From positions 32,001 through 96,000 of the IMG/VR virus record IMGVR_UViG_3300027759_000003: a stretch of DNA of 64,000 bases. One strand, given 5' to 3'. Numbering within the stretch: position 1 is the stretch's first letter; each line of letters starts with the position of its first letter. Position numbers and translations under genes: made by a program. This document shows, piece after piece, positions 21,423 to 64,000 of this stretch. The stretch is from a virus. The notes beneath the pieces are model-generated. The model saw only the letters and a list, made by a program, of their open reading frames with translations, was not told where the DNA came from and made no database searches.

Positions 21423-21423
21423 C

Positions 21424-21495: not shown

Positions 21496-21567
21496 CAATA
21501 AATGGTATAATAGGATTGTATCTGCCTACGGGGGATACATAAACTAACTCGCTGAAAAGGAGAAAAA

Positions 21568-26068: not shown

Positions 26069-26353
26069 ATGAAACAGCATTTATGGAAAGATGACGCAAT
26101 TTGTTTAGGTCTTGATACAAATATTTATTTTGATAAATATGAAGACAACGAATCTGGTAGGGCAATTGTTGATTCAATGTGCCAGCAATGTCCAGTAGCA
26201 AAAACATGCTTTGCAGTAGGCATCTCTGGTAAAGAGTGGGGTGTTTGGGGTGGAGTATATCTAGAAGGTGGAGAAGTATCTAGAGAGTTTAACAAGCATA
26301 AGACTAAAGAAGATTGGTCCAATACCTGGCAATCTTTAACAATGGAAAAATAA
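26069..26353 (+). CDS. whiB: WhiB-family Fe-S transcription factor
   Basis: W...AIC...FD...CQQCPV...C...EWGVWGG: four Cys plus the G(V)WGG turn. Confidence 0.92.
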   Translation: MKQHLWKDDAICLGLDTNIYFDKYEDNESGRAIVDSMCQQCPVAKTCFAVGISGKEWGVWGGVYLEGGEVSREFNKHKTKEDWSNTWQSLTMEK

Positions 26354-27452: not shown

Positions 27453-27485
27453 AGCCAGTCTAGAAATAGGCTGGCTTTTCTTTTA
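27453..27485. terminator. Terminator between convergent operons
   Basis: AGCCAGTCTA-gaaa-TAGGCTGGCT followed by T-rich tract. Confidence 0.8.
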
Positions 27486-30125: not shown

Positions 30126-30825
30126 AATATAAGTGTACTTCATGTTGATAGTCAAGCAATGTTTCTTTGTAGCCAATACCCTTAATAAACTGTCTTAAAT
30201 CATGCAAATATTCTTTCCAATACATCATCATAAATTCTGGGTGTCCAGATAGCCAAATCTTAGGTTTGTGCTCTCTAAGGACCCTTTCAGCCCCTCCTAG
30301 GACCCTCCATTCACTACCCTCAACATCAAGAGAAATTGCAGTAGGCGGCTTCATTCCTTTTTCATATACAAGCGTATCAATTTTTGTTTGACCATATTTA
30401 TCTGCTTCATACTGCAGTTCTTTAAATCCATGAGCAGCCTCAATAGGAGCATCTGCTTCTGGTGGAAACTCGCCATAATAAATACGTGCAAGTTTATTAT
30501 CTTTATCTGATGCAAACCCAGGAATACATGCAATTGGTTTTTCTAAATTATTAGCACTCCAAAGCAAAGGAAAGTGTGACCAAACCTTTGGATTAGGTTC
30601 AAATAAAACAACTTCTGCTCCCCACATTTGACATAGGGCAGGCATTTCTCCTTCTTCTGCTCCAACATAGTAAACAACATCGCCTTTACCAATATTTTCA
30701 TGCATTGATTTTAATCTAATTTTTTCCCAACCATGTGGTTGATACCATTCTGGTCTATCTGCACGATGCTTTGGTAACATTATTTCAAATTCCCCGTTAA
30801 CAGTAGCCTTAATCATTTCAGTCAT
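30112..30825 (-). CDS. FkbM-family methyltransferase
   Basis: VYYVGAEEG, VVLFEPNP and ISLDVEGSEWRVLGGA motifs. Confidence 0.85.
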   Translation of the reverse strand: MTEMIKATVNGEFEIMLPKHRADRPEWYQPHGWEKIRLKSMHENIGKGDVVYYVGAEEGEMPALCQMWGAEVVLFEPNPKVWSHFPLLWSANNLEKPIACIPGFASDKDNKLARIYYGEFPPEADAPIEAAHGFKELQYEADKYGQTKIDTLVYEKGMKPPTAISLDVEGSEWRVLGGAERVLREHKPKIWLSGHPEFMMMYWKEYLHDLRQFIKGIGYKETLLDYQHEVHLYYERS

Positions 30826-31705
30826 TTTGTATCCACTCTACTAATGATACCTTTGGTATCCATCCAGTTAGATCTTTAAACTTGGCGTTAGAGGCAAGAG
30901 TTTCTTGCACTTCACCAATTCTTGGCGGTATAAATTTAATATCATTTGAAATCATATTAGCAATATCAAGTATAGCGTAGTTACTTCCATACCCAATGTT
31001 ATATACTTCACCAAACCCACTTTTAACTTCAGATGCAAGTATGTTTGCTTGTACTACGTCTGATATATGGGTAAAATCTCTACGCTGAGAACCATCTCCA
31101 ACTACTGTTAGTGGCTTTGACTCATGATGTTGTTTAAAAAATAGTCCTATTACTGGTGCATACTGCCCCTTTAATGGTTGTCTATCTCCGTAAACATTAA
31201 AATATCTAAGCGATATAGTCTTTAATCCGTAAAGGTTGTGATAAACTCTTGCAAGGTTTTCACCAAAGACTTTAGCAGCAGAATATGGGGTTAATGGATC
31301 AGGTGATTGTGTTTCTTGGTTTGGAAGCAAAGCCTTTTTGCCATAAGAAGAGGATGTGCTTGAATAGATTAGTCTATCTACCTTGTTAACCCTGCAAAGT
31401 TCAAGAACATTGGCTGTTCCTACTGCGTTTGATTGAATAGATTTTTTTGGATTTAATATTGCTGGCTGTATTCTTGCATCAGATGCTACGTGAAATACGC
31501 AGTCAACATCTTTAAAGAGTGGTGCAATTAGGTCATAATCACAAATGTCATGCTTATAATTTTGTGCTTTATCATTCCAATAGAACTGCTCATGACATTC
31601 TGCAGACTCATCATCAATGCAAATAACATCGTGACCAAGACTAATTAACTTATCAACAAGGTTTGATCCAATAAAACCAGCACCACCAGTAACTAAATAT
31701 TTCAT
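30818..31705 (-). CDS. NAD-dependent nucleotide-sugar epimerase/dehydratase
   Basis: LVTGGAGFIGS, YSAAK, LRYFNVYG and RDFTHISDV motifs. Confidence 0.93.
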   Translation of the reverse strand: MKYLVTGGAGFIGSNLVDKLISLGHDVICIDDESAECHEQFYWNDKAQNYKHDICDYDLIAPLFKDVDCVFHVASDARIQPAILNPKKSIQSNAVGTANVLELCRVNKVDRLIYSSTSSSYGKKALLPNQETQSPDPLTPYSAAKVFGENLARVYHNLYGLKTISLRYFNVYGDRQPLKGQYAPVIGLFFKQHHESKPLTVVGDGSQRRDFTHISDVVQANILASEVKSGFGEVYNIGYGSNYAILDIANMISNDIKFIPPRIGEVQETLASNAKFKDLTGWIPKVSLVEWIQND

Positions 31706-32661
31706 TTTATGTTTAGAGTTTCTAATATGCTTGCCCATCTATGAACATATGTATGTTCTTTTTTAGTCCGCTCATGACCAGCAATCCTTATTTCTTCTCT
31801 GGTTAATCCATCTAAGATGTAGTAATCTATTTTTTGTTTAAGGTCTTCAAGATTACCATGCTCATAAAATATAATTTCTTTACCATCTTCAAAATATTTA
31901 TCAAGTCCTTTGATGCGGGGATAGATAGTAAAACCACCACGACCAGTGCTTTCAAATAGTCTATCGCTTGTATAGTATGGATAGTTAAAGTTTATGTTTA
32001 AACTATCACCTATGGCTACTTTGCTTCTTGCATAGATGCGATTAAGCGCTTCTCCACGCACAGTTCCAGTATCTCCATCGCCACCAACATGTAGGAATCT
32101 TTTACCGTATGTTTTTCGTAAGAAATCTATTAGTTGTGGACGGTATTTATGCTCATGGTGATACCCTTTGCTACCAACAAAAATTATGTCATGCTCAAAG
32201 TTGTGTGGATCGTAATCTTGATGAACGTAGCATTCTTTATCATATACACCAGCAGGTAAGAAATGTCCTTTAACTTCTGTATTTTCATTAAACCAATCAC
32301 ACATTAACTTATCTGTAGCAAAAAAGTGACCTATATTTGTGTAGAAATCATCATTCTTTAAATCTTTTTCACGCTCAATTCCAAACCACAAATCCAAGTG
32401 ATAAGTCATAGTTGGTATGCCAGCAGCCTTTAATTCTTTTAGTACATCAGTCATAGATCTAGATCCTGGAGTCTGCCATCTATGTGTGTGTACCCAGATA
32501 AATAGATTAGAGTTTAATGCTGCGTTTAATATTTCTGTGCTACCTGCTTTTTTTTCTTGCAGTTTTTTCACGGTATGCCCAAGAGATTCCAAAGACTTAG
32601 CATGATGATTCTCACTACTATAAGGCACTTCAAAGTTGCCTAGAAATACTATATTAGCCAA
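31702..32661 (-). CDS. Glycosyltransferase (CgeB / Glyco_trans_1_2-like)
   Basis: DIIFVGS, SDRLFESTGRGGF and HTYVHRW motifs. Confidence 0.8.
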   Translation of the reverse strand: MANIVFLGNFEVPYSSENHHAKSLESLGHTVKKLQEKKAGSTEILNAALNSNLFIWVHTHRWQTPGSRSMTDVLKELKAAGIPTMTYHLDLWFGIEREKDLKNDDFYTNIGHFFATDKLMCDWFNENTEVKGHFLPAGVYDKECYVHQDYDPHNFEHDIIFVGSKGYHHEHKYRPQLIDFLRKTYGKRFLHVGGDGDTGTVRGEALNRIYARSKVAIGDSLNINFNYPYYTSDRLFESTGRGGFTIYPRIKGLDKYFEDGKEIIFYEHGNLEDLKQKIDYYILDGLTREEIRIAGHERTKKEHTYVHRWASILETLNIK

Positions 32662-32732
32662 GGATCCCGCCCATTCTGTGTTTATAACAGTATACCAGAT
32701 TCTGATATACTTATAAGAAAGCGGGGTATTTG

Positions 32733-33422
32733 ATGGATTTTGTTTATATTTGTCGTGATGGAGAAAATGAAGAGTTAAGATACTCCATTAGGTCTGTCTT
32801 GCTTAGTTTTCCAGAGGCAAAGGTTTGGGTCGTAGGTGGAAAGCCAAAATGGTATTCTGGCAATCATGTTTTTTTAGAACAAAATGATAACAAATATGCT
32901 AATGCTGTAAATAATTTAAAGGCTGTTTGCGATACTTCAGATATATCTGATAATTTTATATTAATGAATGATGATTTTTTTATTATTAAAAAAATAGAAA
33001 CAATAGAACAATTTTACAATGGGCTGTTGTCTGAAAAAATAGATAAATTTACAAAGATTACTGGATCATCAATGTATATTAGAAAACTTATAACAACAAA
33101 CAATAAATTAAACAAGTTGGGGTTTACAAAGCCATTAGACTATGAGTTACACGTACCAATGCCAATGCATAAAGCGGGATTACTTTATATATTAAATGAA
33201 TATCCAGAATGTTTATGGAGATCAATGTATGGTAATTTATTTAATGTTGGGGGTAGTCAAATGGAAGATGTTAAAGTATATAAAAACAAAAGGCATGCTG
33301 CAAGATCAGCACAAATAACTAAAAATTCTATTTATTTATCAACAGAAGATACAGGTTTAACCATAATGGTTGATAATATATTTAAAGAATTACTAACAAA
33401 CCCTAGTCCTTACGAGCAGTAA
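32733..33422 (+). CDS. Stealth-like sugar-phosphotransferase/glycosyltransferase
   Basis: MDFVY...EELRYSIRS...KPKW...FILMNDDFF...HVPMP resemble Stealth conserved regions. Confidence 0.6.
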   Translation: MDFVYICRDGENEELRYSIRSVLLSFPEAKVWVVGGKPKWYSGNHVFLEQNDNKYANAVNNLKAVCDTSDISDNFILMNDDFFIIKKIETIEQFYNGLLSEKIDKFTKITGSSMYIRKLITTNNKLNKLGFTKPLDYELHVPMPMHKAGLLYILNEYPECLWRSMYGNLFNVGGSQMEDVKVYKNKRHAARSAQITKNSIYLSTEDTGLTIMVDNIFKELLTNPSPYEQ

Positions 33423-33424
33423 TC

Positions 33425-34207
33425 CTACTCCCAATCGGCTATTTGATTATAGGTAACAGAGTATTCTCCAGAGTATATTTCTGCATAGGAGATCATATCT
33501 TTGTTATATCGTGTTACAGTATTCTTATCTACTAAACCTGTTTTATATTTTTTACCATGCATAATTGGCAAATGTTTTATATTTTCTGATGCCAATGAAT
33601 TATTTAGTGCTTGTATATATCTAGTCTTGCCAAATTGTTTTGAAAGAAATGATTGTTTTGGATATTCTTTTTCTATCCACAGCCTTTCATTATGATCAGA
33701 AGGCTTTGGGTTTAACACTCTTTCTACTTCATTGTGATATATTCTTGTAGACCAACTCTTCATATTTCTTTCATAATTTATTAAATTTTTGTATGTAGAA
33801 TCTGCGTAAGCCATAAAATTCTTATCAAGATCAGACGTAGGTACACCAGTTGCAAATGTTATTAAAAAACAAGTAGCGTAAGGAAATTTATCCGTATATT
33901 TTATTACCTCAAAATGTAGGTTTGGATTAAAAGAATTAACAGAAATGTTGTCAGAAGTCAACCGCATATGGTTACCAATAGAGACAAACTCTGGCGTATT
34001 CATATCACAATCTACAAAAAGACAATCCTCTGGATTAATTCCATCAGCAATAGTTAAAATGTTTTTATCGTATGCCCCAACAACAACTGATCCATTGTAT
34101 CGATTAATTAACTTAGCAGTCATAAATCCATCAATATCGGGAGAAACAATTAATTTTTTAGAGTATTCTAATGTATCTAATATGCTGGTTTTTAAATTAA
34201 ATTCCAT
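33425..34207 (-). CDS. DHH-like phosphoesterase-fold protein
   Basis: SPDIDG, LFVD and GNH motifs in DHH order (degenerate). Confidence 0.45.
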   Translation of the reverse strand: MEFNLKTSILDTLEYSKKLIVSPDIDGFMTAKLINRYNGSVVVGAYDKNILTIADGINPEDCLFVDCDMNTPEFVSIGNHMRLTSDNISVNSFNPNLHFEVIKYTDKFPYATCFLITFATGVPTSDLDKNFMAYADSTYKNLINYERNMKSWSTRIYHNEVERVLNPKPSDHNERLWIEKEYPKQSFLSKQFGKTRYIQALNNSLASENIKHLPIMHGKKYKTGLVDKNTVTRYNKDMISYAEIYSGEYSVTYNQIADWE

Positions 34208-35494: not shown

Positions 35495-36655
35495 ATGACT
35501 ACCAAGAGTTTTAAAACAGGCTTATCCTTAGCGGTTGGTAACGCAAGTGCTGCTATTCCCAATTCTCCTACTATTGGCACTGCTACTACAACAGGAGCAA
35601 CAACAGCAACTGTTACATATACCGCCGCAACTTTAGGTGCTCTTGGTTCTACATTTACCGCTACATCAAGTCCAGGATCTGTTACTGGAACTGGTTCTTC
35701 ACCTATTACGGTTAGTGGTTTGACTGGTGAAACAAATTATACTTTTACAGTCACCGCTACAAATTCTAATGGAACATCAGCAGCCTCTGCTGCAAGTAAT
35801 CAAATTACTACTGATGCAAATACAGTAGTTGCCGATATGCTAATAATTGCAGGTGGAGGAAGTGGTGGAGCATATATCTATGGTGGAGGTGGAGGTGCTG
35901 GTGGATATGTAGAATCAAATTCTTATACATTAAGTTTATCTACAAATTACTCAATAACTATTGGGGCAGGTGGTGCTGGTAATAAAAATAATAATGGCTC
36001 AAATGGAAGTAATACAACATTTGGTTCTATTTATACTGCTACTGGTGGTGGCGCTGGCGGAAGTTGGAACGCTGACAGAAACGGTCAAAATGGTGGTTCA
36101 GGTGGTGGCGGTGGTGAAAATAGTGGTTCTGGCAATGCAGGTTCTGCAACACAAGCAAGTTATGGTGGATTAGGTTTTGGTAATAATGGTGGAGTTTGGT
36201 CAGGCGGTTCTGCTGGTGGCGGTGGAGGTGCAGGTGGAATAGGCGGTGTTGGTGGAACAGGTTATGCAAACTCTGCAGGTGGTGTTGGTAAATCATCTTC
36301 TATAACTGGAACTGCTACATATCGTGCTGCTGGTGGTGGTGGTTCTTCTAATGGGGGTACACCCTATGCTCTTGGCGGCAATGGCGGAGGTGGAAACGGT
36401 AGTAAATGGTTTAATGCCTCGCCTTTTCTTAATGCAACTAGTGGAGATGCTAACACTGGTAGTGGTGGTGGCGGTGATAATACACAAACTGTTGGTGCAG
36501 GTGGTGGCAATGGAGGCTCAGGTATTGTTATTTTAAGATATTTAAATTCAAAAACAATTACAATAGGTGCAGGTCTAACAGGTAGCACAGCAATAGATGG
36601 TTCACATAAAGTAACCACAATAACTGCGGGTACTGGAAATGTGAGTTGGTCATAA
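35495..36655 (+). CDS. FN3 + glycine-rich domain protein (putative adhesin/virion appendage) 1
   Basis: SPITVSGLTGETNYTFTVTATN FN3; IIAGGGSGG...GGSGIVILRY Gly-rich domain. Confidence 0.8.
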   Translation: MTTKSFKTGLSLAVGNASAAIPNSPTIGTATTTGATTATVTYTAATLGALGSTFTATSSPGSVTGTGSSPITVSGLTGETNYTFTVTATNSNGTSAASAASNQITTDANTVVADMLIIAGGGSGGAYIYGGGGGAGGYVESNSYTLSLSTNYSITIGAGGAGNKNNNGSNGSNTTFGSIYTATGGGAGGSWNADRNGQNGGSGGGGGENSGSGNAGSATQASYGGLGFGNNGGVWSGGSAGGGGGAGGIGGVGGTGYANSAGGVGKSSSITGTATYRAAGGGGSSNGGTPYALGGNGGGGNGSKWFNASPFLNATSGDANTGSGGGGDNTQTVGAGGGNGGSGIVILRYLNSKTITIGAGLTGSTAIDGSHKVTTITAGTGNVSWS

Positions 36656-38640
36656 TGGCAATTAAAAGATTAGTTAATGACTCAAGTTTAGTAAATAGTT
36701 TTAGAGCCAGTAGAGGTCAATCTAGTGCAGCAATTCCTAATGCGCCTACTATTGGTACAGCAACTGCTGTTACTGGTACTACAGCAACTGTTACTTATAC
36801 CGCCGCAGTTTTAGGTGCTACAGCATCATCCTTTACAGCAACTTCTAATCCAGGATCATTAACAGGTACTGGTTCTTCACCTATAACGGTTAGTGGTTTA
36901 GATGGTGAAACAAATTATACTTTTACAGTTTATGCAACTAATGCAAATGGTAACTCAACGCAATCTGGTGCAAGTAATCAAATTACTACACCTGTTGCTA
37001 CTTTATCTGTTGATTACTTAGTTGTCGCTGGCGGCGGCGGTGGTGGTGTTGGTGGCGGTGGCGCTGGTGGATATAGAACTTCTGTTGGCTCTGGTCAAGG
37101 TTCTCCTTTAACTATATCATTAAATGCTGATTACACTGTTATAGTAGGTGCTGGTGGCGCTACTTCAACATCAGGTATTAATTCAGTATTTTCTACAATT
37201 ACATCTACTGGTGGTGGTAGAGGTGCAAGTGGAGTCTCTGTATTTGACGGTGGTTCAGGTGGTGGTGGTAGTAATGATGCTACTAATTATGGTTTAGGAA
37301 ACACTCCAGCAACTTCACCTTCACAAGGTAATAATGGTGGCTCAAGATTTAATGGACAAACTTCAGGCGGCGGCGGCGGTGCAGGTGCAGTAGGTGGTAA
37401 TGCAAGCAATTCTACTACTGGTGGCCATGGTGGTGATGGTGCTGCTAACTCTATTACTGGTTCTTCTGTAACTTATGCAGCAGGTGGTGGAGGTGGTGGT
37501 TGGGGTGGTGGTAGTTTTAACGTTTCTGGTGGTGGTAATGGTGGTAGTAGCGGTCTCGGCGGAAATGCTGAAAGAAACGGAGTCGTTGGGCAACCAGGAA
37601 CAGTAAATACTGGTAGTGGCGGTGGCGGCGGATATTGGGTAAATGGTTTAGGTACAGGCGGCTCAGGAATTGTTGTAGCCCGATACTCAGGCACTGTACA
37701 AAAAGCAAGTGGTGGAGTGGTTACTACATCAGGTGGAAATACAATTCACACATTTACCACATCTGGAAACTTTTTAACTTTATCATCTCCACTAGCAAAA
37801 GCAAGCGGTGGAGTTATATCTACTGATGGTACTTATTGGTATCACGCATTTTTATCTTCAGCAACATTTACTCCTACTCAATCATTAACTGCTGATGTAT
37901 TAGTAGTTGCTGGTGGTGGCGGAGGAGGTACTTCTGATTCTGATACTGGCGGCTCTGGCGGTGGTGGTGCAGGTGCGCTTCGTTATTTTGCTTCACAATC
38001 ATTAACCGCAACTGGATATTCTGTAACAGTTGGTGCTGGTGGTACTGCGGGTACAACAAGTAATGTTGGTACTAATGGTATAAATTCACAGTTTGGTTCT
38101 TTATCTGCTTCATCAGGTGGCGGTTGCGGTGGTGGTGGTAATTCCCCTGGATATGGTGGAAGTAATGGTGGTTCAGGTGGTGGTGGTAAATCTAATACAG
38201 GTAATAATGGGGCTGGAACTGGAACTACAGGTGGCAATAATGGCGGTGGTGGCAATAATGGCGGACAACGTGGTGGAGGTGGAGGTGGAGGAGCAGGTGC
38301 TGCTGGTACTGCTGGTGGATTTAGTGCGTCAGGTGCAGGTGGAATTGGGTTAAATACATATTCATCTTGGGCAAGTGCAACTGGAACTGGAGTAAGTGGT
38401 TATTATGCAGGCGGAGGCGGTGGCGGAGAAGGTGGTGCATCAGGTAATGGCGCTGGACTTGGTGGAACGGGTGGAGGAGGTCGAGGCAATTCACATACTT
38501 CTGGAATTGCTGGTGCAGCGGGAACTGCAAATACTGGCGGCGGTGGAGGTGGCGGCGGAGGCAGTGCAAGCGTTGGTGGTTTATACCCAACAGGAAATGC
38601 TGGCGGTAGCGGTATAGTAATTATAAGATATGCAGTCTAA
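36655..38640 (+). CDS. FN3 + two glycine-rich domains protein 2
   Basis: FN3 then two VVAGGGGGG...GGSGIV.RY domains; ATG at 36655 coupled to the previous stop. Confidence 0.8.
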   Translation: MAIKRLVNDSSLVNSFRASRGQSSAAIPNAPTIGTATAVTGTTATVTYTAAVLGATASSFTATSNPGSLTGTGSSPITVSGLDGETNYTFTVYATNANGNSTQSGASNQITTPVATLSVDYLVVAGGGGGGVGGGGAGGYRTSVGSGQGSPLTISLNADYTVIVGAGGATSTSGINSVFSTITSTGGGRGASGVSVFDGGSGGGGSNDATNYGLGNTPATSPSQGNNGGSRFNGQTSGGGGGAGAVGGNASNSTTGGHGGDGAANSITGSSVTYAAGGGGGGWGGGSFNVSGGGNGGSSGLGGNAERNGVVGQPGTVNTGSGGGGGYWVNGLGTGGSGIVVARYSGTVQKASGGVVTTSGGNTIHTFTTSGNFLTLSSPLAKASGGVISTDGTYWYHAFLSSATFTPTQSLTADVLVVAGGGGGGTSDSDTGGSGGGGAGALRYFASQSLTATGYSVTVGAGGTAGTTSNVGTNGINSQFGSLSASSGGGCGGGGNSPGYGGSNGGSGGGGKSNTGNNGAGTGTTGGNNGGGGNNGGQRGGGGGGGAGAAGTAGGFSASGAGGIGLNTYSSWASATGTGVSGYYAGGGGGGEGGASGNGAGLGGTGGGGRGNSHTSGIAGAAGTANTGGGGGGGGGSASVGGLYPTGNAGGSGIVIIRYAV

Positions 38641-38652
38641 CAAAGGAGAAAT

Positions 38653-38853
38653 ATGAAAAAAGATAACGCAACTAAAATAAAAGAAACAAAGACAACACAA
38701 TGTTTTAGTTATGAAATAACAATGTTAGTACACGTTATTTCTGATACCGAAACAAACGCTAAAGCACAATTAGACGAAAAAGGCGGTATTGTTACAAAAC
38801 GTAATGTACAATTAGTTAATAAATCAACTCTCTACGGAGAAGAAACGGAATAA
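38653..38853 (+). CDS. Small hypothetical protein (paralog of 43310-43471)
   Basis: AGGAG RBS; CFSYEITMLVH...LDEKGG motif. Confidence 0.65.
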   Translation: MKKDNATKIKETKTTQCFSYEITMLVHVISDTETNAKAQLDEKGGIVTKRNVQLVNKSTLYGEETE

Positions 38854-38855
38854 TC

Positions 38856-39197
38856 ATGGGTCACTATGCAAAAATAGAAGACGGAATTGTTACACAGGTA
38901 ATCGTTGCCGATGGACCAGACTGGTGTGAAAAAAACTTAGGTGGTGAATGGGTTCAAACCTCATACAACACACACGGTGGAGTTCATTCAGGCGGTAAAT
39001 TTGCTATCCACAAAAATTATGCAGGTATTGGATACACATTTGACGGTATTGGCTTTGCCGCACCTCAACCTTATCCATCTTGGACAAAAAATTTAAACAC
39101 ATACTTGTGGGAAGCACCAACCCCAATGCCAGTTGATGACAAAATCTATCGTTGGGATGAAGACACAACCTCTTGGGTTGAAGTAACACAAGAATAA
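38856..39197 (+). CDS. Conserved partner of glycine-rich proteins (putative fibre assembly/chaperone)
   Basis: MGHYAKIEDGIVTQVIVA...WVQTSYN...KNYAGIGYT...PQPYPSW...WEAPTPMP...WDE motif family. Confidence 0.75.
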   Translation: MGHYAKIEDGIVTQVIVADGPDWCEKNLGGEWVQTSYNTHGGVHSGGKFAIHKNYAGIGYTFDGIGFAAPQPYPSWTKNLNTYLWEAPTPMPVDDKIYRWDEDTTSWVEVTQE

Positions 39198-39212
39198 AAA
39201 AAAGGTATCTAA

Positions 39213-41174
39213 ATGGCAGCCAAAAGAGTAGTTACCAGTAGTAGTATAGCCAACAGTTTTAAGATGAGTGTTGGACAATCTTCTGCTGCCATTCCAAATT
39301 CCCCGACAATCGGCACTGCTACTGCTGTAACAGGAACTACTGCTACTGTTGCTTATACTGCTGCCGTATTAGGGGCTACAGCATCATCCTTTACTGCTAC
39401 ATCTAATCCAGGATCACTTACTGGTACTGGTTCTTCACCTATAACGGTTAGTGGTTTGACTGGTGAAACAAATTATACTTTTACAGTTTATGCAACTAAT
39501 GCAAATGGTAACTCAGCGCAATCTGGTGCAAGTAATCAAATTACTACTCCTACTGCAAACTTAATTATTGATGCTCTTGTTATTGCTGGCGGTGGTGGAG
39601 GTGGAAGTTATGGAACTAGTGGTGGCGGCGGCGCAGGCGGATTATTATATTTTAGTTCACAAACTCTATCTCCTGCATCTTATGTAATAACTGTTGGAGC
39701 AGGAGGTGCAGCAGCCACTAATGGATATGATTCACAATTTGGTGCGTTAACTTCGGCTATAGGTGGTGGAACAACTGGAACTAATGGTGGTTCTGGTGGT
39801 GGTGCTGGTGACACTGGTAACGCTGGCTCTGGTGTAGTTGGACAAGGAAACAACGGAGGATCTAGGGGTGGAAGCATTGGTTTAGGAGGAGGAGGTGGTG
39901 CAGGAGGTGCTGGCGGAAATGGTTCAGGTAATGGTGGTGTAGGTGGTGCTGGTGTAAACACATATTCATCTTGGGCATCTGCAACTTCTACAGGTGTATC
40001 TGGATATTACGCTGGCGGCGGCGGTGGCGCTGGCCATTATAGTCAACAGGTTGGAGGTGCAGGTGGTTCAGGTGGAGGTGGAAATGGTGGTTCTGCTGAC
40101 ACAGTTGCTGCTACTTCTGGAGTTGCAAATACAGGTTCAGGTGGTGGTGGTGGTGCATTTGCTGGTTATAGTCCTAGTCCACTTGGTGGTTCAGGTGGTT
40201 CAGGAATTGTTATAGTTCGTTATCAATCTGGTACACAAAAAGCATTAGGTGGAACAATTACAACATCTGGAGGATATTATTATCATACATTTACTGCATC
40301 AGGTATTTTTCAAACAGAGTATTCAGTAGCAAAAGCAACTGGCGGATCAATAAATACTGATGGTACTTATTGGTATCACACATTTACTGGTTCAGGTACA
40401 TTTACTCCTACTCAATCATTAACTGCTGATTATTTGGTAGTAGCAGGCGGCGGCGGTGGAGGAAACATGGGCGGTGGCGGCGGAGCAGGTGGACTTCGTT
40501 CTACTGTTACTGCAACAGGCGGTGGCGGTTCATTAGAATCATCAGTATCTTTAATTAACAATACAGCATACGCAATTTCTATTGGTGCAGGAGGAACTAG
40601 TTCAGTTCAACATAATATTTCTGGCGGTCAAGGTGTAAATTCATCAATTATTGGTGGAGCAATCTCTATTACATCTACAGGTGGCGGTGGTGGAGCAAGT
40701 TATGCTTCAAGCCCAAGTAGTGGTGGTTCAGGTGGCGGCGGCCAGCGTTCTAATGGTGCAGGAGCATCTGGAACACAATATCAGGGTTATGCAGGTGGTT
40801 CAGGTGGTGGATATAGCGGTGGTGATGATAGTCTTTCATCTGGCGGTGGCGGAGGCGGAGCAGGTACTATTGGTGGTTCATATAATTCTGGAATTACTAA
40901 AGCAGGTAATGGTGGTAACGGTGTTCAAATTACTGCATTATCAACACCAACTGGAACTGGTAAAGACAGTGGCTATTACGCAGGTGGTGGTGGAGGTGGT
41001 GGATATAACTCAACCGCTGGGTCTGCAGGTCTTGGTGGAGTAGCAGGTGTAACTGGTGGCAATAATGGTATATCTGGAACTCCAAATACTGGTAGTGGCG
41101 GTGGAGGTGGCGGTACTGGAAGAAATGGCGGACCAGGCGGTAGCGGTATAGTAATAATTAGGTATGCAGTCTAA
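39213..41174 (+). CDS. FN3 + two glycine-rich domains protein 3
   Basis: Same architecture as 36655-38640; nearly identical FN3 DNA. Confidence 0.8.
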   Translation: MAAKRVVTSSSIANSFKMSVGQSSAAIPNSPTIGTATAVTGTTATVAYTAAVLGATASSFTATSNPGSLTGTGSSPITVSGLTGETNYTFTVYATNANGNSAQSGASNQITTPTANLIIDALVIAGGGGGGSYGTSGGGGAGGLLYFSSQTLSPASYVITVGAGGAAATNGYDSQFGALTSAIGGGTTGTNGGSGGGAGDTGNAGSGVVGQGNNGGSRGGSIGLGGGGGAGGAGGNGSGNGGVGGAGVNTYSSWASATSTGVSGYYAGGGGGAGHYSQQVGGAGGSGGGGNGGSADTVAATSGVANTGSGGGGGAFAGYSPSPLGGSGGSGIVIVRYQSGTQKALGGTITTSGGYYYHTFTASGIFQTEYSVAKATGGSINTDGTYWYHTFTGSGTFTPTQSLTADYLVVAGGGGGGNMGGGGGAGGLRSTVTATGGGGSLESSVSLINNTAYAISIGAGGTSSVQHNISGGQGVNSSIIGGAISITSTGGGGGASYASSPSSGGSGGGGQRSNGAGASGTQYQGYAGGSGGGYSGGDDSLSSGGGGGGAGTIGGSYNSGITKAGNGGNGVQITALSTPTGTGKDSGYYAGGGGGGGYNSTAGSAGLGGVAGVTGGNNGISGTPNTGSGGGGGGTGRNGGPGGSGIVIIRYAV

Positions 41175-41233
41175 TAAATAATAAAATAATGATACAATGT
41201 TTTTATAACTTTGATTTTTTTGAAGGGATTTAA

Positions 41234-42760
41234 ATGGCAGTCAACAACCTAAATAAGGTAAAAATTCCAGGTACTGGAACTACTGCTGCCCGTCCATCTA
41301 ATCCTGCTGTAGGAGATACTTTTTATAACGGTACCCTCGGAAGATTAGAAATTTATACATCACAAGGATGGATGGCTTTAAATGCCCCAGCAGCAACCCC
41401 TACAGGTGTAACAGCAACAGACGCAGGTTCTGGCAGGGCATACAATAATGGCTCTGCATCAATAGCATTTACTCCAGCAACAGCAGGTGGTCTACCAACA
41501 TCATATGTAGTTACATCATCTCCTGGCTCCTATACTGCGACGGGATCAGTAAGTCCAATCATAGTATCAGGTCAACAATCTTCAACTCAATATACATATA
41601 CAGTAGTAGCAAGCAATGACTTTGGAACAGCAACATCTTCTGCATCTAGTGCAGTTACTGCAACTACCGTGCCACAGGCTCCTACAATTGGTGCTGTAAC
41701 TGGTGGAAATGCTTTAGCAACAGTTGCCTATACAGCAGGTGCAACTGGTGGTTTATCTAATACTTATACTGCTACATCATCTCCAGGTGGACTTACTGGT
41801 ACTGGTTCAAGTCCTATTACAGTTTCAGGATTAACTAATGGAACTTCATATACATTTACAGTAACAGCAACAAATGCTAACGGAACATCAGCAGCAAGTG
41901 CTGCAAGTAGTTCAGTAACTCCTGTTGCAGAAATTTTAGTTGATTACCTTGTACTTGCAGGAGGCGGTGGCGGAGGCGGAGGCGGTGGTGGTGCAGGTGG
42001 ATTGCGTTCTACTGTAACTGCAAGTGGTCGTGGTACCGCACCCGAATCCAATTTAACTTTATTACCTTCAACTAATTATGCGGTTACAGTTGGTGCTGGC
42101 GGTGCTGGTGTTCTGGGTTACGAAGGAACTGGTGCTGGTGGTGGCATCGGAGCAAACTCTGTATTTAGCACTATAACTTCTCTTGGTGGAGGCGGTGGCG
42201 GAAGCAACGCTAATTTTGGTACTAACGGTGGTTGTGGTGGTGGAGCGTGTTATTCATCAGGTCAGTCAGGTCCAGGAGCAGGAACTGCTGGTCAAGGATT
42301 TGATGGTGGTCAAGATACAGTTGATATTGCCCCATATCCTGGTGCTGGTGGTGGAGGAACTGGTCAAGCAGGACAAGTGCCCCTTACTGCATCTGTCCCT
42401 GGTCCTGGAGGTAATGGTACGGCTGTATCAATTACTGGTACATCAGTTACGTATGGCGGCGGAGGCGGAGGTGGAATATATCCTTACTCTTCTACTGGTG
42501 CTCCTGGTGGTACTGGCGGAGGCGGAAGTTCAAGTGGTGGAGTAGGTGGCGACGGTACTGTCAATCTTGGTGGTGGCGGTGGTGGAAATTCAAGAACTCA
42601 AACAGGTGGCAATGGCGGAGCAGGTGTAGTTATTCTTAGATACCCAGACACTTTTACAATTTCAATTGGAGCAGGTTTAACAGGAACTACAAGTTCACCA
42701 AGTGGCGGATACAAAAGAACAACATTAACTGCAGGTACTGGAAATGTGAGTTGGGCATAA
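41234..42760 (+). CDS. Two FN3 + glycine-rich domain protein 4
   Basis: N-terminal GTTAARPSNP..GDTFYN...LEIY fibre motif; two FN3; Gly-rich domain ending TAGTGNVSWA. Confidence 0.8.
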   Translation: MAVNNLNKVKIPGTGTTAARPSNPAVGDTFYNGTLGRLEIYTSQGWMALNAPAATPTGVTATDAGSGRAYNNGSASIAFTPATAGGLPTSYVVTSSPGSYTATGSVSPIIVSGQQSSTQYTYTVVASNDFGTATSSASSAVTATTVPQAPTIGAVTGGNALATVAYTAGATGGLSNTYTATSSPGGLTGTGSSPITVSGLTNGTSYTFTVTATNANGTSAASAASSSVTPVAEILVDYLVLAGGGGGGGGGGGAGGLRSTVTASGRGTAPESNLTLLPSTNYAVTVGAGGAGVLGYEGTGAGGGIGANSVFSTITSLGGGGGGSNANFGTNGGCGGGACYSSGQSGPGAGTAGQGFDGGQDTVDIAPYPGAGGGGTGQAGQVPLTASVPGPGGNGTAVSITGTSVTYGGGGGGGIYPYSSTGAPGGTGGGGSSSGGVGGDGTVNLGGGGGGNSRTQTGGNGGAGVVILRYPDTFTISIGAGLTGTTSSPSGGYKRTTLTAGTGNVSWA

Positions 42761-48600: not shown

Positions 48601-49316
48601 CTGCTTTGGCTTGCTCCCCAATAGGTTTGAGGGTTCTCTTCAAGAAGTCCCCTAATACTATTAATAACCTCTTCGTCAGACATGATCTCTCCGTCTGTGT
48701 TTATAAGTTCCATAATCTTATCTATGATCTCACCGTGGTCCATTAGTCTTCATCCTCATCTTCATCAATTACATATGCAACATTAGACTGACCCTCGTGA
48801 AATGAAGGTGGGTCTTGCCATATACCCCAAGATAAAGAACTATCAGATAGGCCCTCTGACACTAAGTCTCCACCAAATTGCGATGAATATGTTTTAGTCA
48901 CATTACCCATAGTATGTGTTCTCATCTATGTAACCTTCTGCTAACAAACCTTCAAAGAAGTCCCATATGGTTAATAGGCCTTGCTTTACTTTTGGGTCGG
49001 TAGCGGAATCAATAGCAACAGTTAAACTATTACCAAATTCTTGTATATCCTTGTATGTATAACCTAACATTATCTATCATACTCCTTAATCAAATTCATC
49101 GCAAAGTGAAGACAACAATCGCAGTCTCCATTATTCATGCTATATATAAAGTCAAAATGTTCAGAGTTGTCCTCATATATATTCATTATTAGGCCGTCTA
49201 TGGTTAGTGGTTTGTTAATTGTGGTCATGTTAATATTTTACAGGAAACTGGGGAAAAAGTCAATCTTTCTTAATGAAACAATCATGTGTTATTATTTAAA
49301 GAAAGAAAACCCGGAG

Positions 49317-49390
49317 CGGCTCTGATGGGACTTGAACCCACGATCTCTACCGTGACAGGGTAGCGCATTAACCAACTATGCTACAGAACC
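49317..49390 (-). tRNA. tRNA-Asp(GTC)
   Basis: Minus strand GGTTCTG...CTACC-ctGTCac-GGTAG...GGTTCAAGTCC...CAGAGCC. Confidence 0.93.
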
Positions 49391-59353: not shown

Positions 59354-60085
59354 ATGGCTAAAAGCATGGACTTCCCAGACGTTTCAAAAAAGAAAAAATA
59401 CTCCGAAGCAGTACAAGGCACCCAAGAATTAAATACACAGTATATTGCTGTTCCTGGAATCCAAGGTGAAAAAGGTGAAACTGGACCAAAGGGTGAAAAA
59501 GGTGATCAAGGTATACAAGGTTTAAAAGGAGAAAAAGGGGATAGAGGTCCCGAAGGTCCACAAGGACAGCGAGGAGAGCCAGGTAAGGGTGCAGAAGGCT
59601 ATGACAGCGTATCTGGTCAATATCCAGGATGGGCATATTATAGGAATAAAAATTTAAGTGAAGTTAGGCTTGGTCCAGAAAGAGGGGATGACGGATGGGT
59701 ATCTATAAATTTTATGAAAGACGAAGAAACATCTAATGAGATCTATATGCCAATCGGTGCAAATACTTTATGGAATAATGAATCAAAAAATTTTAACTTT
59801 AAAGCCTTAAAAATTGGAGCAAAGGTAGATGTAAGATATGACTTTACTATAACTACTTATATGAATAATACAGAGGTTTGGGCTAGGTTATTTGTTCCAG
59901 ATTATAGCAACTCTCCAATAGGATATGTTTCAACTCTAAAATATCAATACTCATACGATATGTCATATAACCAAACCATATATCTAGATGCTCAAAGAAT
60001 TAGAACACTAGGTGGAGCAATTCAATTCAGGGCAGATAATGAAAGTAATATAGTTCTAAATGGTATCTATATTGCTGTTTGTTAA
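59354..60085 (+). CDS. Collagen-like (Gly-X-Y) virion protein
   Basis: About 15 Gly-X-Y triplets followed by a globular domain. Confidence 0.8.
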   Translation: MAKSMDFPDVSKKKKYSEAVQGTQELNTQYIAVPGIQGEKGETGPKGEKGDQGIQGLKGEKGDRGPEGPQGQRGEPGKGAEGYDSVSGQYPGWAYYRNKNLSEVRLGPERGDDGWVSINFMKDEETSNEIYMPIGANTLWNNESKNFNFKALKIGAKVDVRYDFTITTYMNNTEVWARLFVPDYSNSPIGYVSTLKYQYSYDMSYNQTIYLDAQRIRTLGGAIQFRADNESNIVLNGIYIAVC

Positions 60086-61075: not shown

Positions 61076-61804
61076 ATGGCAGCAGAATCAATAGGTACGT
61101 TAGTACCAACTAAAATTCCAGGATTATCAGATCCTGCCGACATACAAGCAGCACTGCGTTTATATCACTATGGAGATTATACATATACTACATCAAACTC
61201 TAATACAGCAAACCTTGTAAATCCATCTATTGCTTATACAATTAATAGTTTACAAAGTCAGATAACTGCAATTGATCTTTCAACTGCACTACTAAAAACA
61301 GACTTTGCTGCTAAAGGTGATCTACTTTCTGCTTCAGCAAATGACACATTATCTATTTTATCTGTTGGAAGTAATGGAACAGTTTTAACAGCCAACTCAG
61401 CAACAGCATCAGGTTTAGCCTGGACAACACCAGATGTTACACTTACTAATAGTGCAACACTAACTAATAAAACTTTAACTGCTCCAGTTATAAATCTTTC
61501 AATTAATCCACAAACAGTTGCCTATGAACTTGTTCTTGCCGATAATGGAAAAATGGTTGAGGTGTCAAGTGCTTCTGCAGTTACCTTGTCAATTCCAACA
61601 AACGCCAACCAAGCATTTGCAACAGGTGCACAAATTACAATTTTACAAACAAGCACGGGACAGGTAACTATTGCAGCAACTACTCCAGGAACTACAACTG
61701 TAAACGGAACTCCAGGATTAAAATTAAGAGCACAATGGTCATCTGCCGTATGTATTAAACGTGCTACTGACTCTTGGGTTGTTCTTGGAGACTTAGTTGC
61801 ATAA
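61076..61804 (+). CDS. Putative tail-fibre-like structural protein
   Basis: AKGDLL...LSVGSNGTVLTANSATASGLAW repeat and C-terminal YELVLADNGK...LRAQWSSA...WVVLGDL domain. Confidence 0.7.
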   Translation: MAAESIGTLVPTKIPGLSDPADIQAALRLYHYGDYTYTTSNSNTANLVNPSIAYTINSLQSQITAIDLSTALLKTDFAAKGDLLSASANDTLSILSVGSNGTVLTANSATASGLAWTTPDVTLTNSATLTNKTLTAPVINLSINPQTVAYELVLADNGKMVEVSSASAVTLSIPTNANQAFATGAQITILQTSTGQVTIAATTPGTTTVNGTPGLKLRAQWSSAVCIKRATDSWVVLGDLVA

Positions 61805-62379
61805 TGTCAAGACTAGGACCCGTATCATCTTCTGCTGGTCGTAAACCAGGAACACCAACAATTGGGTCTGCAACTGCTGGCGATGGTCAAGCAAGTGTAA
61901 CATTTACAGCACCAACATATTTAGGTAAACCAAATTCTTCTTTAACTTATACAGTAGTTTCATCTCCTAGTTCAATTTCTAATACTGGATCTGGATCACC
62001 AATTACAGTTACTGGATTATCAAATGGAACATCTTATAGTTTTACAGTAAAGTTAAGTAATACTGTTTTAGATTCTGAGTTTTCATCAGCAAGCAATAAC
62101 GTTTCTCCAGCAGGAGCAGCACCACCACCCCCACCTCCTCCTCCCCCACCACCCGTAACGCCACCACCTGTAACGCCGCCACCTGCGACGCCACCACCTG
62201 CGACGCCACCACCTGCGACGCCACCACCTGCGACGCCACCACCTGCGACGCCACCACCTGTTCAAAACAAATCTTGTACTACACAAGATGTTATTAATGG
62301 TCTATGCTATCCAAGCGGATGTTGTGGTGGTGTTCGTGGAGGACAGTGTGGATATACAACAACTTGTAATTATGGATAA
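61804..62379 (+). CDS. FN3 + proline-rich (extensin-like) protein with Cys-rich tip
   Basis: FN3 (SPITVTGLSNGTSYSFTV), poly-Pro run, (PPP[V/A]T)n repeats, Cys-rich C-terminus. Confidence 0.8.
   Translation: MSRLGPVSSSAGRKPGTPTIGSATAGDGQASVTFTAPTYLGKPNSSLTYTVVSSPSSISNTGSGSPITVTGLSNGTSYSFTVKLSNTVLDSEFSSASNNVSPAGAAPPPPPPPPPPPVTPPPVTPPPATPPPATPPPATPPPATPPPATPPPVQNKSCTTQDVINGLCYPSGCCGGVRGGQCGYTTTCNYG
62146..62260 (+). repeat. Coding tandem repeat, 15-bp unit CCACCACCTGCGACG
   Basis: About 7 near-exact units encoding PPP(A/V)T. Confidence 0.9.
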
Positions 62380-62412
62380 GATAAGATATACTTTTAATAA
62401 GGAGAAAAATAT

Positions 62413-62778
62413 ATGGTAACAGATGCTTCAATTGATTATATTTATAGCCCAGAAATTCCAGGCATAGGGGTTGCCTTTGTTATTGATAGAGAGGTTTTGT
62501 ATACTGCTCCAGTCTGGGCTACATTTGGACAAAAATTATTAGACGCTACAGAATTTAGAGATGTCTCATCTGAATATATAGAACATAATGGTATGACAAT
62601 AGAAATATTAATAGATGATCAAGTAGTAGAAACATGGCAAACCACAGAGTATGTAGGTTCAATTTTACTTTCAAATCCATTAATATTAGATTTATCAAAA
62701 TATGAAAATGGCGGATATGTAGAAGATTTAAAGGCTAGTTTTGACGGTGTAAAATTTATTATTAAAACAGGGGAATAA
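62413..62778 (+). CDS. Hypothetical protein
   Basis: AGGAG RBS; AFVID.EV...SILLSNP motif. Confidence 0.65.
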   Translation: MVTDASIDYIYSPEIPGIGVAFVIDREVLYTAPVWATFGQKLLDATEFRDVSSEYIEHNGMTIEILIDDQVVETWQTTEYVGSILLSNPLILDLSKYENGGYVEDLKASFDGVKFIIKTGE

Positions 62779-62779
62779 T

Positions 62780-63004
62780 ATGAGTAAGTGGTCAGAGTAT
62801 AAAGAAAAAAATGGATCAACTCCACTGGATTTTTTAAATCCAAGAACTAACCGTGTTAGTGATGAAGTTGCAAAATCAAGACTTGATATATGCATATCTT
62901 GCCCAGAATTAATACAAATTACAAAACAATGTAAAAAATGTAGATGTTTTATGACAGCAAAAACAAAAATTGAAGCATCCAGATGCCCAATAGGAAAATG
63001 GTAA
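62780..63004 (+). CDS. Small Cys-rich protein
   Basis: RLDICISCPEL...QCKKCRCFM..KTK....CPIGKW. Confidence 0.75.
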   Translation: MSKWSEYKEKNGSTPLDFLNPRTNRVSDEVAKSRLDICISCPELIQITKQCKKCRCFMTAKTKIEASRCPIGKW

Positions 63005-63960
63005 TGAATAAGATTTATGTTTCAATAGCATCTTATCGAGATCCATATTTACAAAGTACAATAGATTCACTTTTTCTTGAAGCAGATAATCCAGAAAATA
63101 TAACAGTTGGATGTTTTATACATGCTTTAAAAAATGAAATTAAAGATTTAAGCCTAAAAAAAACATATAACAATAAAGTTAAATATGAAATTGAGCAGGC
63201 TGGTACAGTTTTTAGCGTTACCGCTTGTAGAAATCGTTGTTTAAAATGGCTTGACAGTACTTATAAATACACCTTACAAGTAGACTCTCATTCAAGATTT
63301 GATAAAGGATGGGATACAAAATTAATTAATATTATAGAGTCTACAGGTGATAATAAAGCAATACTTAGCGGTGCGTTACCAGTTTTTGATATTTTAGAAG
63401 ATGGCACAGAAGAAAAAAAACAACAAGATTATCCAGTTTCATTTACTGTGCATACTGACACAACCAAAGAGAATATTTTGCATTCCTACGACCTATCTCC
63501 AAGGGGAATAGTTTTACAAACACTTGAAAACAAGGAATACGCTATTGATTGGTATTTAACTGGACATTTTATTTTTTCTTTAAGTGATTATTTTAAAAAA
63601 ATTCCACAACCAGACTGGGTTTTATTTTGGGGAGAAGAAGTTTTAAACGGTGTTAGAGCCTTTACTGCTGGATATAACGTTTATATTCCAAAAAATGTAC
63701 CAATTTATCATTTGTATTCTGATAGAATAAAAAGACCAAGATTAGTTCAAGATTTTCCAGAAAAATATTTTTTATTAAGAGACTATACAACAGACAGAAT
63801 TATTGATATACTAATAGGTAAAGATATTAAAGAAAATGATATTTTTTATGAAAGAAGTATAGAAAGTTTTTATAACTACGTTGGTTATAATTTAGGAGAA
63901 TTATTTGATTCTTGGAGAAATTGGAGAAAAGAGTTAATTGATAAGGGGAGAAATGAATAA
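63004..63960 (+). CDS. GT60-like GlcNAc transferase (Skp1 hydroxyproline GlcNAc-T family)
   Basis: IYVSIASYRDP...TI.SLF..ADNPENITVG, LQVDSHSRF.KGWD, FWGEE...VRAFTAGY and YHLY motifs. Confidence 0.8.
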   Translation: MNKIYVSIASYRDPYLQSTIDSLFLEADNPENITVGCFIHALKNEIKDLSLKKTYNNKVKYEIEQAGTVFSVTACRNRCLKWLDSTYKYTLQVDSHSRFDKGWDTKLINIIESTGDNKAILSGALPVFDILEDGTEEKKQQDYPVSFTVHTDTTKENILHSYDLSPRGIVLQTLENKEYAIDWYLTGHFIFSLSDYFKKIPQPDWVLFWGEEVLNGVRAFTAGYNVYIPKNVPIYHLYSDRIKRPRLVQDFPEKYFLLRDYTTDRIIDILIGKDIKENDIFYERSIESFYNYVGYNLGELFDSWRNWRKELIDKGRNE

Positions 63961-64000
63961 AGCAAAAACGTTTAAAAATTTTATTTTAAAAAAAGATTGT
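63953..64000 (+). CDS. 5' end of a gene truncated by the window edge (MNKAKTFKNFILKKDC...)
   Basis: AGGGGAG RBS; ATG overlaps the GT60 stop region; open to the window end. Confidence 0.5.
   Translation, partial: MNKAKTFKNFILKKDC

Follow-up and report, generated by a model that had tools for sequence, protein, structure and literature searches.

Does a bacteriophage chemically modify the fiber that it builds and, if so, with which enzymes and on which residues? The question is raised by a run of genes at the end of a 64,000-nucleotide stretch of viral DNA, here called the window, which covers bases 32001-96000 of IMG/VR record IMGVR_UViG_3300027759_000003 (109,757 bp with direct terminal repeats (DTR), rated 100% complete). 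In this run, a tail-fiber gene is followed by a gene for a protein with an FN3 head, a polyproline (polyPro) run, (PPPxT)n repeats and a knob with six Cys (the stalk-knob protein), and then by ORF121, DUF6171, a GT60 glycosyltransferase, a prolyl 4-hydroxylase (P4H)-type oxygenase and DUF6065. From this genomic context, we consider that the phage probably modifies its own fiber. The genes concerned are given below in window coordinates, with G000 for the source record and L numbers for IMG/VR loci; the succession of an FN3/poly-Pro/(PPP[A/V]T)n protein, two small genes and a glycosyltransferase agrees with a preliminary description of the window.

61804..62379, + strand: stalk-knob protein, candidate substrate, 191 aa, with FN3 head, P11, (PPP[V/A]T)8 and a 39-aa knob with 6 Cys
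62120..62260, + strand: stalk-coding repeat DNA, a CCN run and then a 15-bp repeat x 7.7
62983..63960, + strand: GT60 (PF11397) polypeptide-type glycosyltransferase, 325 aa; PF11397 E 9.9e-38, 130.9 bits against a 21-bit cut-off
63953..64507 window-equivalent (G000:95953-96507, L003:5954-6508), + strand: P4H-type 2-oxoglutarate (2OG)-Fe(II) oxygenase, 184 aa; PF13640
62413..62778, + strand: ORF121, putative accessory protein, with a strong AAGGAG Shine-Dalgarno sequence
62780..63004, + strand: DUF6171-type small Cys-rich protein, 74 aa; PF19668 E 1.3e-4, phrog_13558 E 3.4e-16
L003:6498-7250, past the window end, + strand: DUF6065; PF19541 E 2.5e-35, 122.5 bits against a 26.6 cut-off
61076..61804, + strand: tail-fiber-like protein of 242 aa (phrog_8780 minor tail protein, E 3.6e-14), its gene in translational coupling with the stalk gene

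Judged by its sequence and model, the glycosyltransferase is a member of family GT60, with a GT-A fold related to GT27 and a DxH metal motif. The preliminary description had assigned it to this family from the motifs SIASYRD, QVDSHSRF and GEE, and these coincide with columns that are invariant in 22 homologs (A16/Y18/R19/D20, Q99/D101/H103/F106 and W216/G217/E218/E219), including both ends of the metal motif D101-x-H103. PF11397 was present in all 110 database homologs. For the AlphaFold model (pLDDT 92.7), the best solved folds were the GT27 polypeptide GalNAc-transferases ppGalNAc-T2, T1, T4 and T10 (Foldseek E down to 4.5e-11), enzymes that modify Thr/Ser of mucin repeats; searches of the PDB by sequence or profile gave no matches, and the relation came from the fold search. 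The real start of the protein may be the ATG at 62998 or 63004. It has no signal anchor and is soluble, so it should act in the cytoplasm.

The oxygenase gene begins 8 nt ahead of the GT60 stop codon, and only its 5' end (63953..64000) lies in the window. From the 16 residues visible there, it had been suspected to be the start of a prolyl hydroxylase, and the full gene justifies this: it encodes a PF13640 oxygenase (E 2.8e-7, 31.8 bits against a 27-bit cut-off) with the HxD...H motif and a basic residue at +10. Among ten homologs, H98, D100 and H157 are invariant, R167 at +10 is replaced by K in one sequence, and a YLNxDYxGG motif is shared. When we compared a P4H profile with the PDB, the best matches were the P4H of B. 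anthracis (3itq, 3.6e-12) and that of chlorovirus PBCV-1 (5c5t, 9.7e-11), followed by prolyl 3-hydroxylase 1 (P3H1, 2.4e-10) and Chlamydomonas CrP4H (3.2e-6), whereas EGLN/HIF-PHD chains reached only about 1e-3 to 5e-3 and none of the 50 PDB matches was an AlkB or TET entry. On these sequence matches, the enzyme is of the collagen/algal/chlorovirus type and not of the PhyA/HIF (Skp1) type. PHROG labels it as 'DNA endonuclease' or 'endonuclease V', which we regard as a mis-annotation because the PDB matches of its profile are prolyl hydroxylases.

The candidate substrate is encoded upstream of both enzymes. Its gene starts at the ATG at 61804, with GGAG 5' of it and a TAATG overlap with the stop of the fiber gene (61802-61806); these features favored this start over a longer TTG open reading frame (ORF) from 61774, which was considered an artefact. 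A -1 frameshift joining the fiber and stalk genes was likewise rejected, as the overlap is a plain TAATG and no slippery heptamer was seen. The FN3-like head scored under the 25-bit cut-off of Pfam fn3 (E 7.8e-4, 20.1 bits), but it shares 55% identity (E 1e-11) with the FN3 head of a paralog farther downstream, and this paralog is above the cut-off. After the head come an 11-Pro run, eight PPP[V/A]T units and a 39-aa tail carrying the 6 Cys, which are likely to be disulfide-bonded. The stalk has more than 35 prolines, every repeat unit offers a Thr and then PPP, and the underlying DNA is a 15-bp tandem repeat (62146-62260, 7.7 copies, 95% matches, score 188 in Tandem Repeats Finder). In L119, a 702-aa protein combines a fiber N-terminus and a (TPPV)n stalk in one polypeptide, and its N-terminal 258 aa are homologous to the whole of the fiber protein at 61076-61804 (E 1e-22). 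Such fusion of stalks to tail-fiber N-termini in relatives indicates that stalk and knob are part of a fiber, and is consistent with a place in the virion. Past the window end, after DUF6065, lie three tandem paralogs that combine FN3 with Gly_rich_2 (PF21722; L003:7649-12619, equal to G000:97648-102618; 404, 412 and 398 aa), and beside them a fourth FN3 protein of 287 aa. The N-terminal head of the stalk protein is common to all four; it probably docks the protein on the virion, as if one docking domain bore interchangeable distal parts.

The locus is one tight late operon inside a run of fiber-type genes. Besides the fiber-stalk TAATG, stop/start overlaps join DUF6171 to GT60, GT60 to P4H (8 nt) and P4H to DUF6065 (11 nt). 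DUF6171, GT60, the P4H-type oxygenase and DUF6065 are each present in one copy in the genome, all adjoining. Scans for promoters and terminators gave site numbers not above those in shuffled sequence.

Is the combination of stalk and enzymes peculiar to this phage? Searches of IMG/VR found 391 relatives of GT60 and at least 513 of the P4H-type oxygenase; 80 loci were kept from each search, and families were called with hidden Markov models built from the window's proteins. Across about 160 loci, DUF6171 and a variable enzyme set are closely preceded by a gene for a Pro- or Thr-rich stalk and Cys knob, the common layout being a Pro-rich protein, sometimes ORF121, DUF6171, the variable enzymes and then usually DUF6065. 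The families were distributed over the cassettes as follows, in proportions that are biased, since the loci had been gathered with GT60 and P4H as baits.

DUF6171, the most constant cassette marker: 99/100 cassettes
DUF6065: 77/100 cassettes
P4H-type oxygenase, often as 2-3 paralogs: 73/100 cassettes
GT60: 52/100 cassettes
Cupin/JmjC-like protein: 22/100 cassettes
GT61: 10/100 cassettes
Radical-SAM (rSAM)-SPASM enzyme: 5/100 cassettes
O-FucT-like protein: 5/100 cassettes
UDP-glucose dehydrogenase: 3/100 cassettes
Epimerase: 2/100 cassettes

The alternative enzyme sets (GT61, rSAM-SPASM, JmjC/cupin, UDP-Glc dehydrogenase, epimerase and O-FucT-like) are a protein-tailoring repertoire. To put a number on the linkage, we counted distinct DUF6171 anchors that had 700 nt or more of DNA upstream: 52/57 had a Pro-rich ORF on the same strand ending at most 1.5 kb away, against a background in the same loci of 16 Pro-rich ORFs among 2174 of at least 100 aa (0.7%), many of which arise as artefacts on the antisense strand of Gly-rich genes. 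Of the five anchors without a Pro-rich ORF, three turned out to have stalks of poly-Thr or (APTTA)n/(PTTTAA)n. The preliminary description had expected GT60 and P4H to co-occur with Pro-rich genes across phages, which is borne out in many phage contigs; it had counted the joint lack of a nearby oxygenase and of transfer to Hyp- or Thr-containing peptides, or a lack of co-occurrence between GT60 and Pro-rich genes, as evidence to the contrary, and we found that an oxygenase adjoins GT60 and that GT60 does co-occur with Pro-rich genes.

The upstream Pro/Thr-rich proteins have a common architecture, not a common sequence: a variable adaptor, a low-complexity stalk and a Cys knob. The adaptors are of at least four unrelated kinds (FN3 head, 20-residue peptide, GxWK repeats and tail-fiber N-terminus), the stalk repeats range over PPPAT, PPPTT, TPPV, TPPPIIA, VVPP, up to 53 successive Pro, and poly-Thr, and the knob is a short C-terminal segment with 4, 6, 8 or 10 Cys. 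How these parts are exchanged can be seen in L128, which is closely related and has its genes in the same order. Its FN3 head is 90% identical to that of the window and the alignment ends exactly at the stalk; L128 has another stalk unit, another knob (8 Cys) and another enzyme set. Stalk, knob and enzymes thus move as one unit, and such joint exchange is expected of a host-recognition or surface-decoration module.

Taking these observations together, we favor, with moderate confidence, a reading in which P4H hydroxylation and GT60 glycosylation, the latter of Thr more than of hydroxyproline (Hyp), act independently on a fiber-tip or decoration stalk in the host cytoplasm, with DUF6171, ORF121 and DUF6065 as accessories. 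The locus would be a fiber-tip tailoring cassette in the late structural operon of an actinophage, and a polyproline-II-type stalk (P11, then (PPPxT)8) would hold out the six-Cys knob. The cytoplasmic action of both enzymes would precede assembly or coincide with it. As a first step, the P4H-type 2OG/Fe(II) oxygenase would hydroxylate stalk prolines; as a second, the soluble GT27-like GT60 would add a sugar to the stalk, probably an N-acetylhexosamine from a UDP-sugar. Mucin-type glycosylation would be the parallel: the presumed acceptor is Thr, one in each TPPP unit, and Hyp is less likely. DUF6171, ORF121 and DUF6065 may serve as conserved accessory factors.

Several points weigh against this reading, in addition to the bait bias mentioned above. 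Many of the loci are related, and shared synteny cannot be counted as independent evidence among related phages. Nor is GT60 always found with stalk proteins, as one clade of 22 phage GT60s lacks both DUF6171 and a stalk gene in the vicinity. In L139, L140 and L158, a pure polyPro stalk is accompanied by both P4H and GT60, so that a Hyp acceptor is possible in that other GT60 clade. The virion location of the stalk-knob protein is drawn from neighboring genes and domain fusions only, and the cassette was found in no cultured phage. Finally, the model of DUF6065, a dUTPase/dCTP-deaminase-like barrel, is of moderate quality (pLDDT 66.6).

The best-surviving alternative, which we nevertheless consider doubtful, is a Skp1-like sequence in which P4H makes 4-hydroxyproline and GT60 adds alpha-linked N-acetylglucosamine (GlcNAc) to that Hyp, giving an extensin-like hydroxyproline-rich glycoprotein. 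The 8-nt overlap between the GT60 and P4H genes of the window's phage and the three polyPro cassettes with both enzymes are in its favor. Precedent can be cited on both sides, as of the characterized GT60 members, the founding enzyme Gnt1 acts specifically on Hyp of Skp1 and the T. cruzi enzyme on Thr (PMC6939170). We turn to the relatives, using a tree of 69 distinct phage GT60s (quick IQ-TREE search, midpoint root, phage sequences only). The window's GT60 falls in a clade of 26 (support 100). In its own subclade, 8/9 GT60 genes have an adjacent P4H, as the Skp1-like sequence would predict, but this is the only subclade of its clade with one, and the 17 members outside it (17/26) have none. 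Moreover, the complete 98-kb DTR phage G005 has stalk, DUF6171, GT60 and DUF6065, and no P4H-type gene was found in its genome by PF13640, PF13759 or the P4H profile, with the window's genome as the positive control for PF13640. Poly-Thr/(APTTA)n stalks occur only with GT60, paired with DUF6171-GT60 alone and P4H absent, and Thr/Ser-free stalks (polyPro, VVPP) occur only where P4H is present.

GT60 and P4H are therefore separable modules; a strict dependence of GT60 on P4H does not hold in the relatives, although both genes are present in the window's phage. Because 17/26 clade members and G005 lack P4H and because poly-Thr stalks go with GT60 alone, Thr appears the likelier sugar acceptor than Hyp, with proline hydroxylation as a separate step. 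The availability of a Thr followed by PPP in each repeat unit also argues against the Skp1-like sequence, as does the oxygenase, whose matches to collagen/algal/chlorovirus-type enzymes (E about 1e-12) far exceed those to the PhyA/HIF type (about 1e-3). A search for Skp1 (PF01466) in the complete phage genome, run without a positive control, gave no match. The proposal of the preliminary description thus divides into two parts: that the phage glycosylates its own Pro/Thr stalk has good support from the genomic context and the fiber fusions, while the Skp1-like sequential chemistry with Hyp as acceptor is not supported, on the evidence from the clade, G005, the poly-Thr stalks and the non-PhyA oxygenase.

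It is improbable that the enzymes are instead directed at the host (as auxiliary metabolic or host-takeover functions acting on host proteins or envelope polymers) and that the Pro-rich gene is their neighbor only by way of a variable late region. The PHROG category of the glycosyltransferase is indeed 'moron, auxiliary metabolic gene and host takeover', viral P4H appears in virome papers as an auxiliary metabolic gene of cryptic role (PMC9301287), the 22 GT60s of the clade described above have no stalk gene near them, and the same phage carries a second, unrelated sugar island (27483-34207). Against these stand the linkage of a stalk gene to 52/57 anchors over a 0.7% background, the joint swapping of stalk, knob and enzymes between close relatives, the translational coupling of the cassette genes inside a fiber operon, and the best structural matches of the glycosyltransferase, which are polypeptide and not polysaccharide transferases.

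Another candidate substrate for the oxygenase is the Gly-X-Y protein that the preliminary description had placed at 59354 and that its Pfam and PHROG matches corroborate.

59354..60085, + strand: collagen-like (Gly-X-Y) tail-fiber-type protein of the same late fiber module; Pfam Collagen E 1.1e-8

This protein matched many tail-fiber PHROGs (e.g. phrog_5073, E 1.3e-16), and its gene is conserved in close relatives, some 2.4 kb before the stalk gene. We find it very unlikely that P4H acts on this fiber, with the stalk modified by GT60 only or not at all. Such a role would suit the best solved relatives of the oxygenase, which are collagen-type (B. anthracis 3itq, P3H1), and the retention of the collagen-like gene upstream in the close clade; however, the second-best is the chlorovirus PBCV-1 enzyme, and with one X-Pro-Gly site, compared with the more than 35 prolines of the stalk, the collagen-like region is the poorer P4H substrate. 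In addition, most P4H loci have a Pro-rich stalk gene and no collagen-like gene in the locus, and P4H is found with stalks that offer Pro as the sole acceptor (polyPro, (VVPP)n).

Least probable of all is that the stalk-knob proteins are precursors of modified Cys-rich peptides in a cluster like those for ribosomally synthesized and post-translationally modified peptides (RiPPs) and not virion parts, for although the order of precursor, small Cys-rich protein and enzymes resembles a RiPP cluster, some stalk-knob versions are as short as 76-170 aa, with an N-terminus of 20 aa, and five cassettes have an rSAM-SPASM enzyme, the proteins show no signal peptide or obvious leader-cleavage motif, their heads are FN3, GxWK-repeat or tail-fiber N-termini, and the gene lies inside a fiber operon with stop/start coupling.

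Where independent hydroxylation and glycosylation of the stalk is accepted, the remaining genes would be its accessory factors. ORF121 had no family match in Pfam, PHROG, NCBIfam or PADLOC, and the ESM Atlas gave no usable match; its homologs occupy the same position in 19 loci. In several loci, an ORF121-like segment and DUF6171 are fused as a 134-aa protein (L029:9173-9577, L030:4057-4461, L033:9585-9989 and L035:9585-9989), which suggests, by gene fusion, that the two small proteins work together. In DUF6171, the six-Cys pattern C-x2-C...C-x-K-C-G-C...C-P-x-G-K-W is kept at the C-terminus among 74 distinct homologs, and on this pattern the protein is probably zinc-binding (a zinc-ribbon). 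In L004, a 231-aa gene follows a second DUF6171 and has no Pfam family match. For DUF6065, the top 22 VIA matches in a fold search were all dUTPase/dCTP-deaminase-like (Z up to 9.3), and the ESM Atlas contained viral DUF6065 clusters only. The catalytic motif residues of dUTPase are not invariant in DUF6065, so we do not claim nucleotide chemistry. The idea that DUF6065 might be a hidden hydroxylase was rejected, as its predicted core is a dUTPase-like barrel and not the double-stranded beta-helix of an oxygenase.

Some cassettes and stalk proteins differ in ways that we record here. An rSAM/SPASM enzyme lies beside GT61 genes and downstream of the stalk-knob gene at L106:2495-3349 (Pfam matches, E 4.3e-11 and 1.5e-10), L097:1651-2520, L116:2091-2945 and L149:3465-4328. 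SPASM enzymes usually cross-link Cys-containing peptides, and by analogy the Cys knob itself may be the target in these cassettes. Long stalk proteins (L029:6003-7973, L030:788-2857 and L028:7206-8783) have several Cys-rich modules with pure P8-P13 linkers between them. By eye, the C-termini of about 170 aa in some of the long stalk proteins (L029, L036) looked Hint/intein-like, but they had no Pfam match and we make no such claim. A few kb upstream, several GT60 contigs also encode proteins of 800-1000 aa (L028:1835-4258, L029:50-2896, L082:3206-5755 and L083:2518-5535). These have a signal peptide, PT/PE-rich regions of great length and, at the C-terminus, a hydrophobic segment with a basic tail; from these features, they look like envelope-anchored proteins. 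In the 110-kb genome itself, only one other protein is genuinely strongly Pro-rich. It lies 42 kb away, directly before a tRNA cluster (20190-21191), and its 333 aa include an evident Sec signal peptide, Thr-rich segments and a (PTPTPV)n linker, with no Pfam family match; it is possible that it is a second glycosylation target.

As to the setting, a WhiB-family gene (26084-26257, G000:58084-58257, E 2.8e-12) points to an actinobacterial host. A blastn search of the locus against GenBank phages gave zero matches, and at the protein level GenBank phages had a distant GT60-like gene in two Xanthomonas jumbo phages only; NCBIfam and PADLOC scans matched only the generic 2OG domain. Elsewhere in the window, there are five tRNA genes (21199-21496 and 49316-49390), with Asn, Gly, Glu and Thr tightly clustered and Asp on the opposite strand. 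Four large paralogs (35495-42760; 386, 664, 653 and 508 aa) all belong to phrog_2295, of unknown function; this stretch has a G+C of 0.447, compared with about 0.35 elsewhere, and its Gly-rich coding gives many spurious antisense Pro-rich ORFs. The sugar island at 27483-34207, mostly on the - strand and unrelated to the cassette, encodes GT1-like, GT47/RXYLT1-like, FkbM methyltransferase, Glyco_trans_1_2 and Stealth CR2-like proteins together with an NAD-dependent epimerase/dehydratase (E 2.2e-58), and may serve to produce or alter a glycan, either of the virion or of the host surface.

What would follow if the stalk is indeed tailored? In aquatic viromes, few auxiliary metabolic genes are commoner than the viral P4H genes, whose use 'remains cryptic' (PMC9301287). 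Here they sit in a cassette with a dedicated stalk-knob fiber gene and protein-type glycosyltransferases, and their role would therefore be virion-tailoring and not metabolic. Such a system, if true, would bring Hyp and mucin/extensin-like glycoprotein chemistry into phage structural biology and would give DUF6171 and DUF6065 a first functional context, as protein-tailoring families; the swap-in module of stalk, knob and enzymes may also set host range or particle surface in abundant lake actinophages. A bolder version, which we hold only tentatively and regard as unlikely, is that hydroxyproline-rich, O-glycosylated extensin/mucin-like stalks are built in the bacterial cytoplasm by a widespread modular system of uncultured freshwater and marine phages, with Hyp-linked sugar in some lineages. 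A Hyp-rich stalk system would, if real, explain the abundance of P4H among the 'auxiliary' genes of aquatic viromes, and sugar on Hyp would be the first Hyp O-glycosylation outside eukaryotes.

How does the cassette compare with known systems? The Skp1 pathway of Dictyostelium and Toxoplasma (PhyA P4H and Gnt1 GT60; PMC6939170) likewise uses a soluble cytoplasmic P4H-type enzyme and a soluble GT60 on a protein. It differs in that the phage P4H is of the collagen/algal/viral type and not the PhyA/HIF type, that follow-on PgtA/AgtA-type enzymes are absent from the phage cassette, that GT60 and P4H are separable in the phage relatives, and that the proposed substrate is a long repeat stalk with dozens of sites, compared with one proline in Skp1; the phage cassette also adds the conserved DUF6171 and DUF6065. 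The UDP-GlcNAc:polypeptide alpha-GlcNAc-transferase of T. cruzi (GT60) and the GT27 enzymes glycosylate Thr in Thr/Pro-rich repeats, as is proposed for the phage enzyme; further likenesses are the GT27-type fold with its DxH motif and the poly-Thr stalks found with phage GT60. However, they are eukaryotic Golgi membrane proteins, unlike the soluble phage enzyme, which also has no lectin domain. Plant and algal extensins share with the phage protein a polyproline-II stalk of short Pro-rich repeats with a hydroxy amino acid per unit, and the same broad type of P4H (CrP4H, 3.2e-6). The phage repeat is TPPP[A/V] instead of Ser-Hyp4, we saw neither Hyp arabinosyltransferase nor Ser galactosyltransferase families, and the phage modification would be cytoplasmic and not secretory. 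The locus thus belongs with GT60 and P4H-type oxygenases, and not to the Skp1 pathway or to extensin biosynthesis.

Among viruses, mycobacteriophage virion glycosylation offers a likeness in that an actinophage glycosylates its own structural proteins. The proteins concerned there are reportedly capsid and tail-tube subunits, and neither a hydroxylase nor a dedicated Pro-rich stalk protein is said to have been described. That the glycosyltransferases acting on these phages' own structural proteins are phage-encoded is stated in the passage of PMC12582341 that cites Freeman et al. (2023, Cell Host Microbe 31:1216). For PBCV-1, the passage of PMC9301287 that cites Eriksson et al. (1999) describes a virus-encoded P4H for which the virus's own Pro-rich repeat proteins are likely substrates. 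The likeness lies in the pairing of a viral P4H with viral Pro-rich repeat proteins and in the rank of 5c5t as second-best solved relative (E 9.7e-11), and the difference is that PBCV-1 is a virus of a eukaryotic alga, where a linked cassette of substrate gene, GT60, DUF6171 and DUF6065 is not described. We found no paper on this cassette, on a phage GT60, on DUF6065, or on a phage P4H combined with a Pro-rich fiber. Self-tailoring of virion proteins by phages is already known, and the cassette of stalk, P4H and GT60 would be a further form of it.

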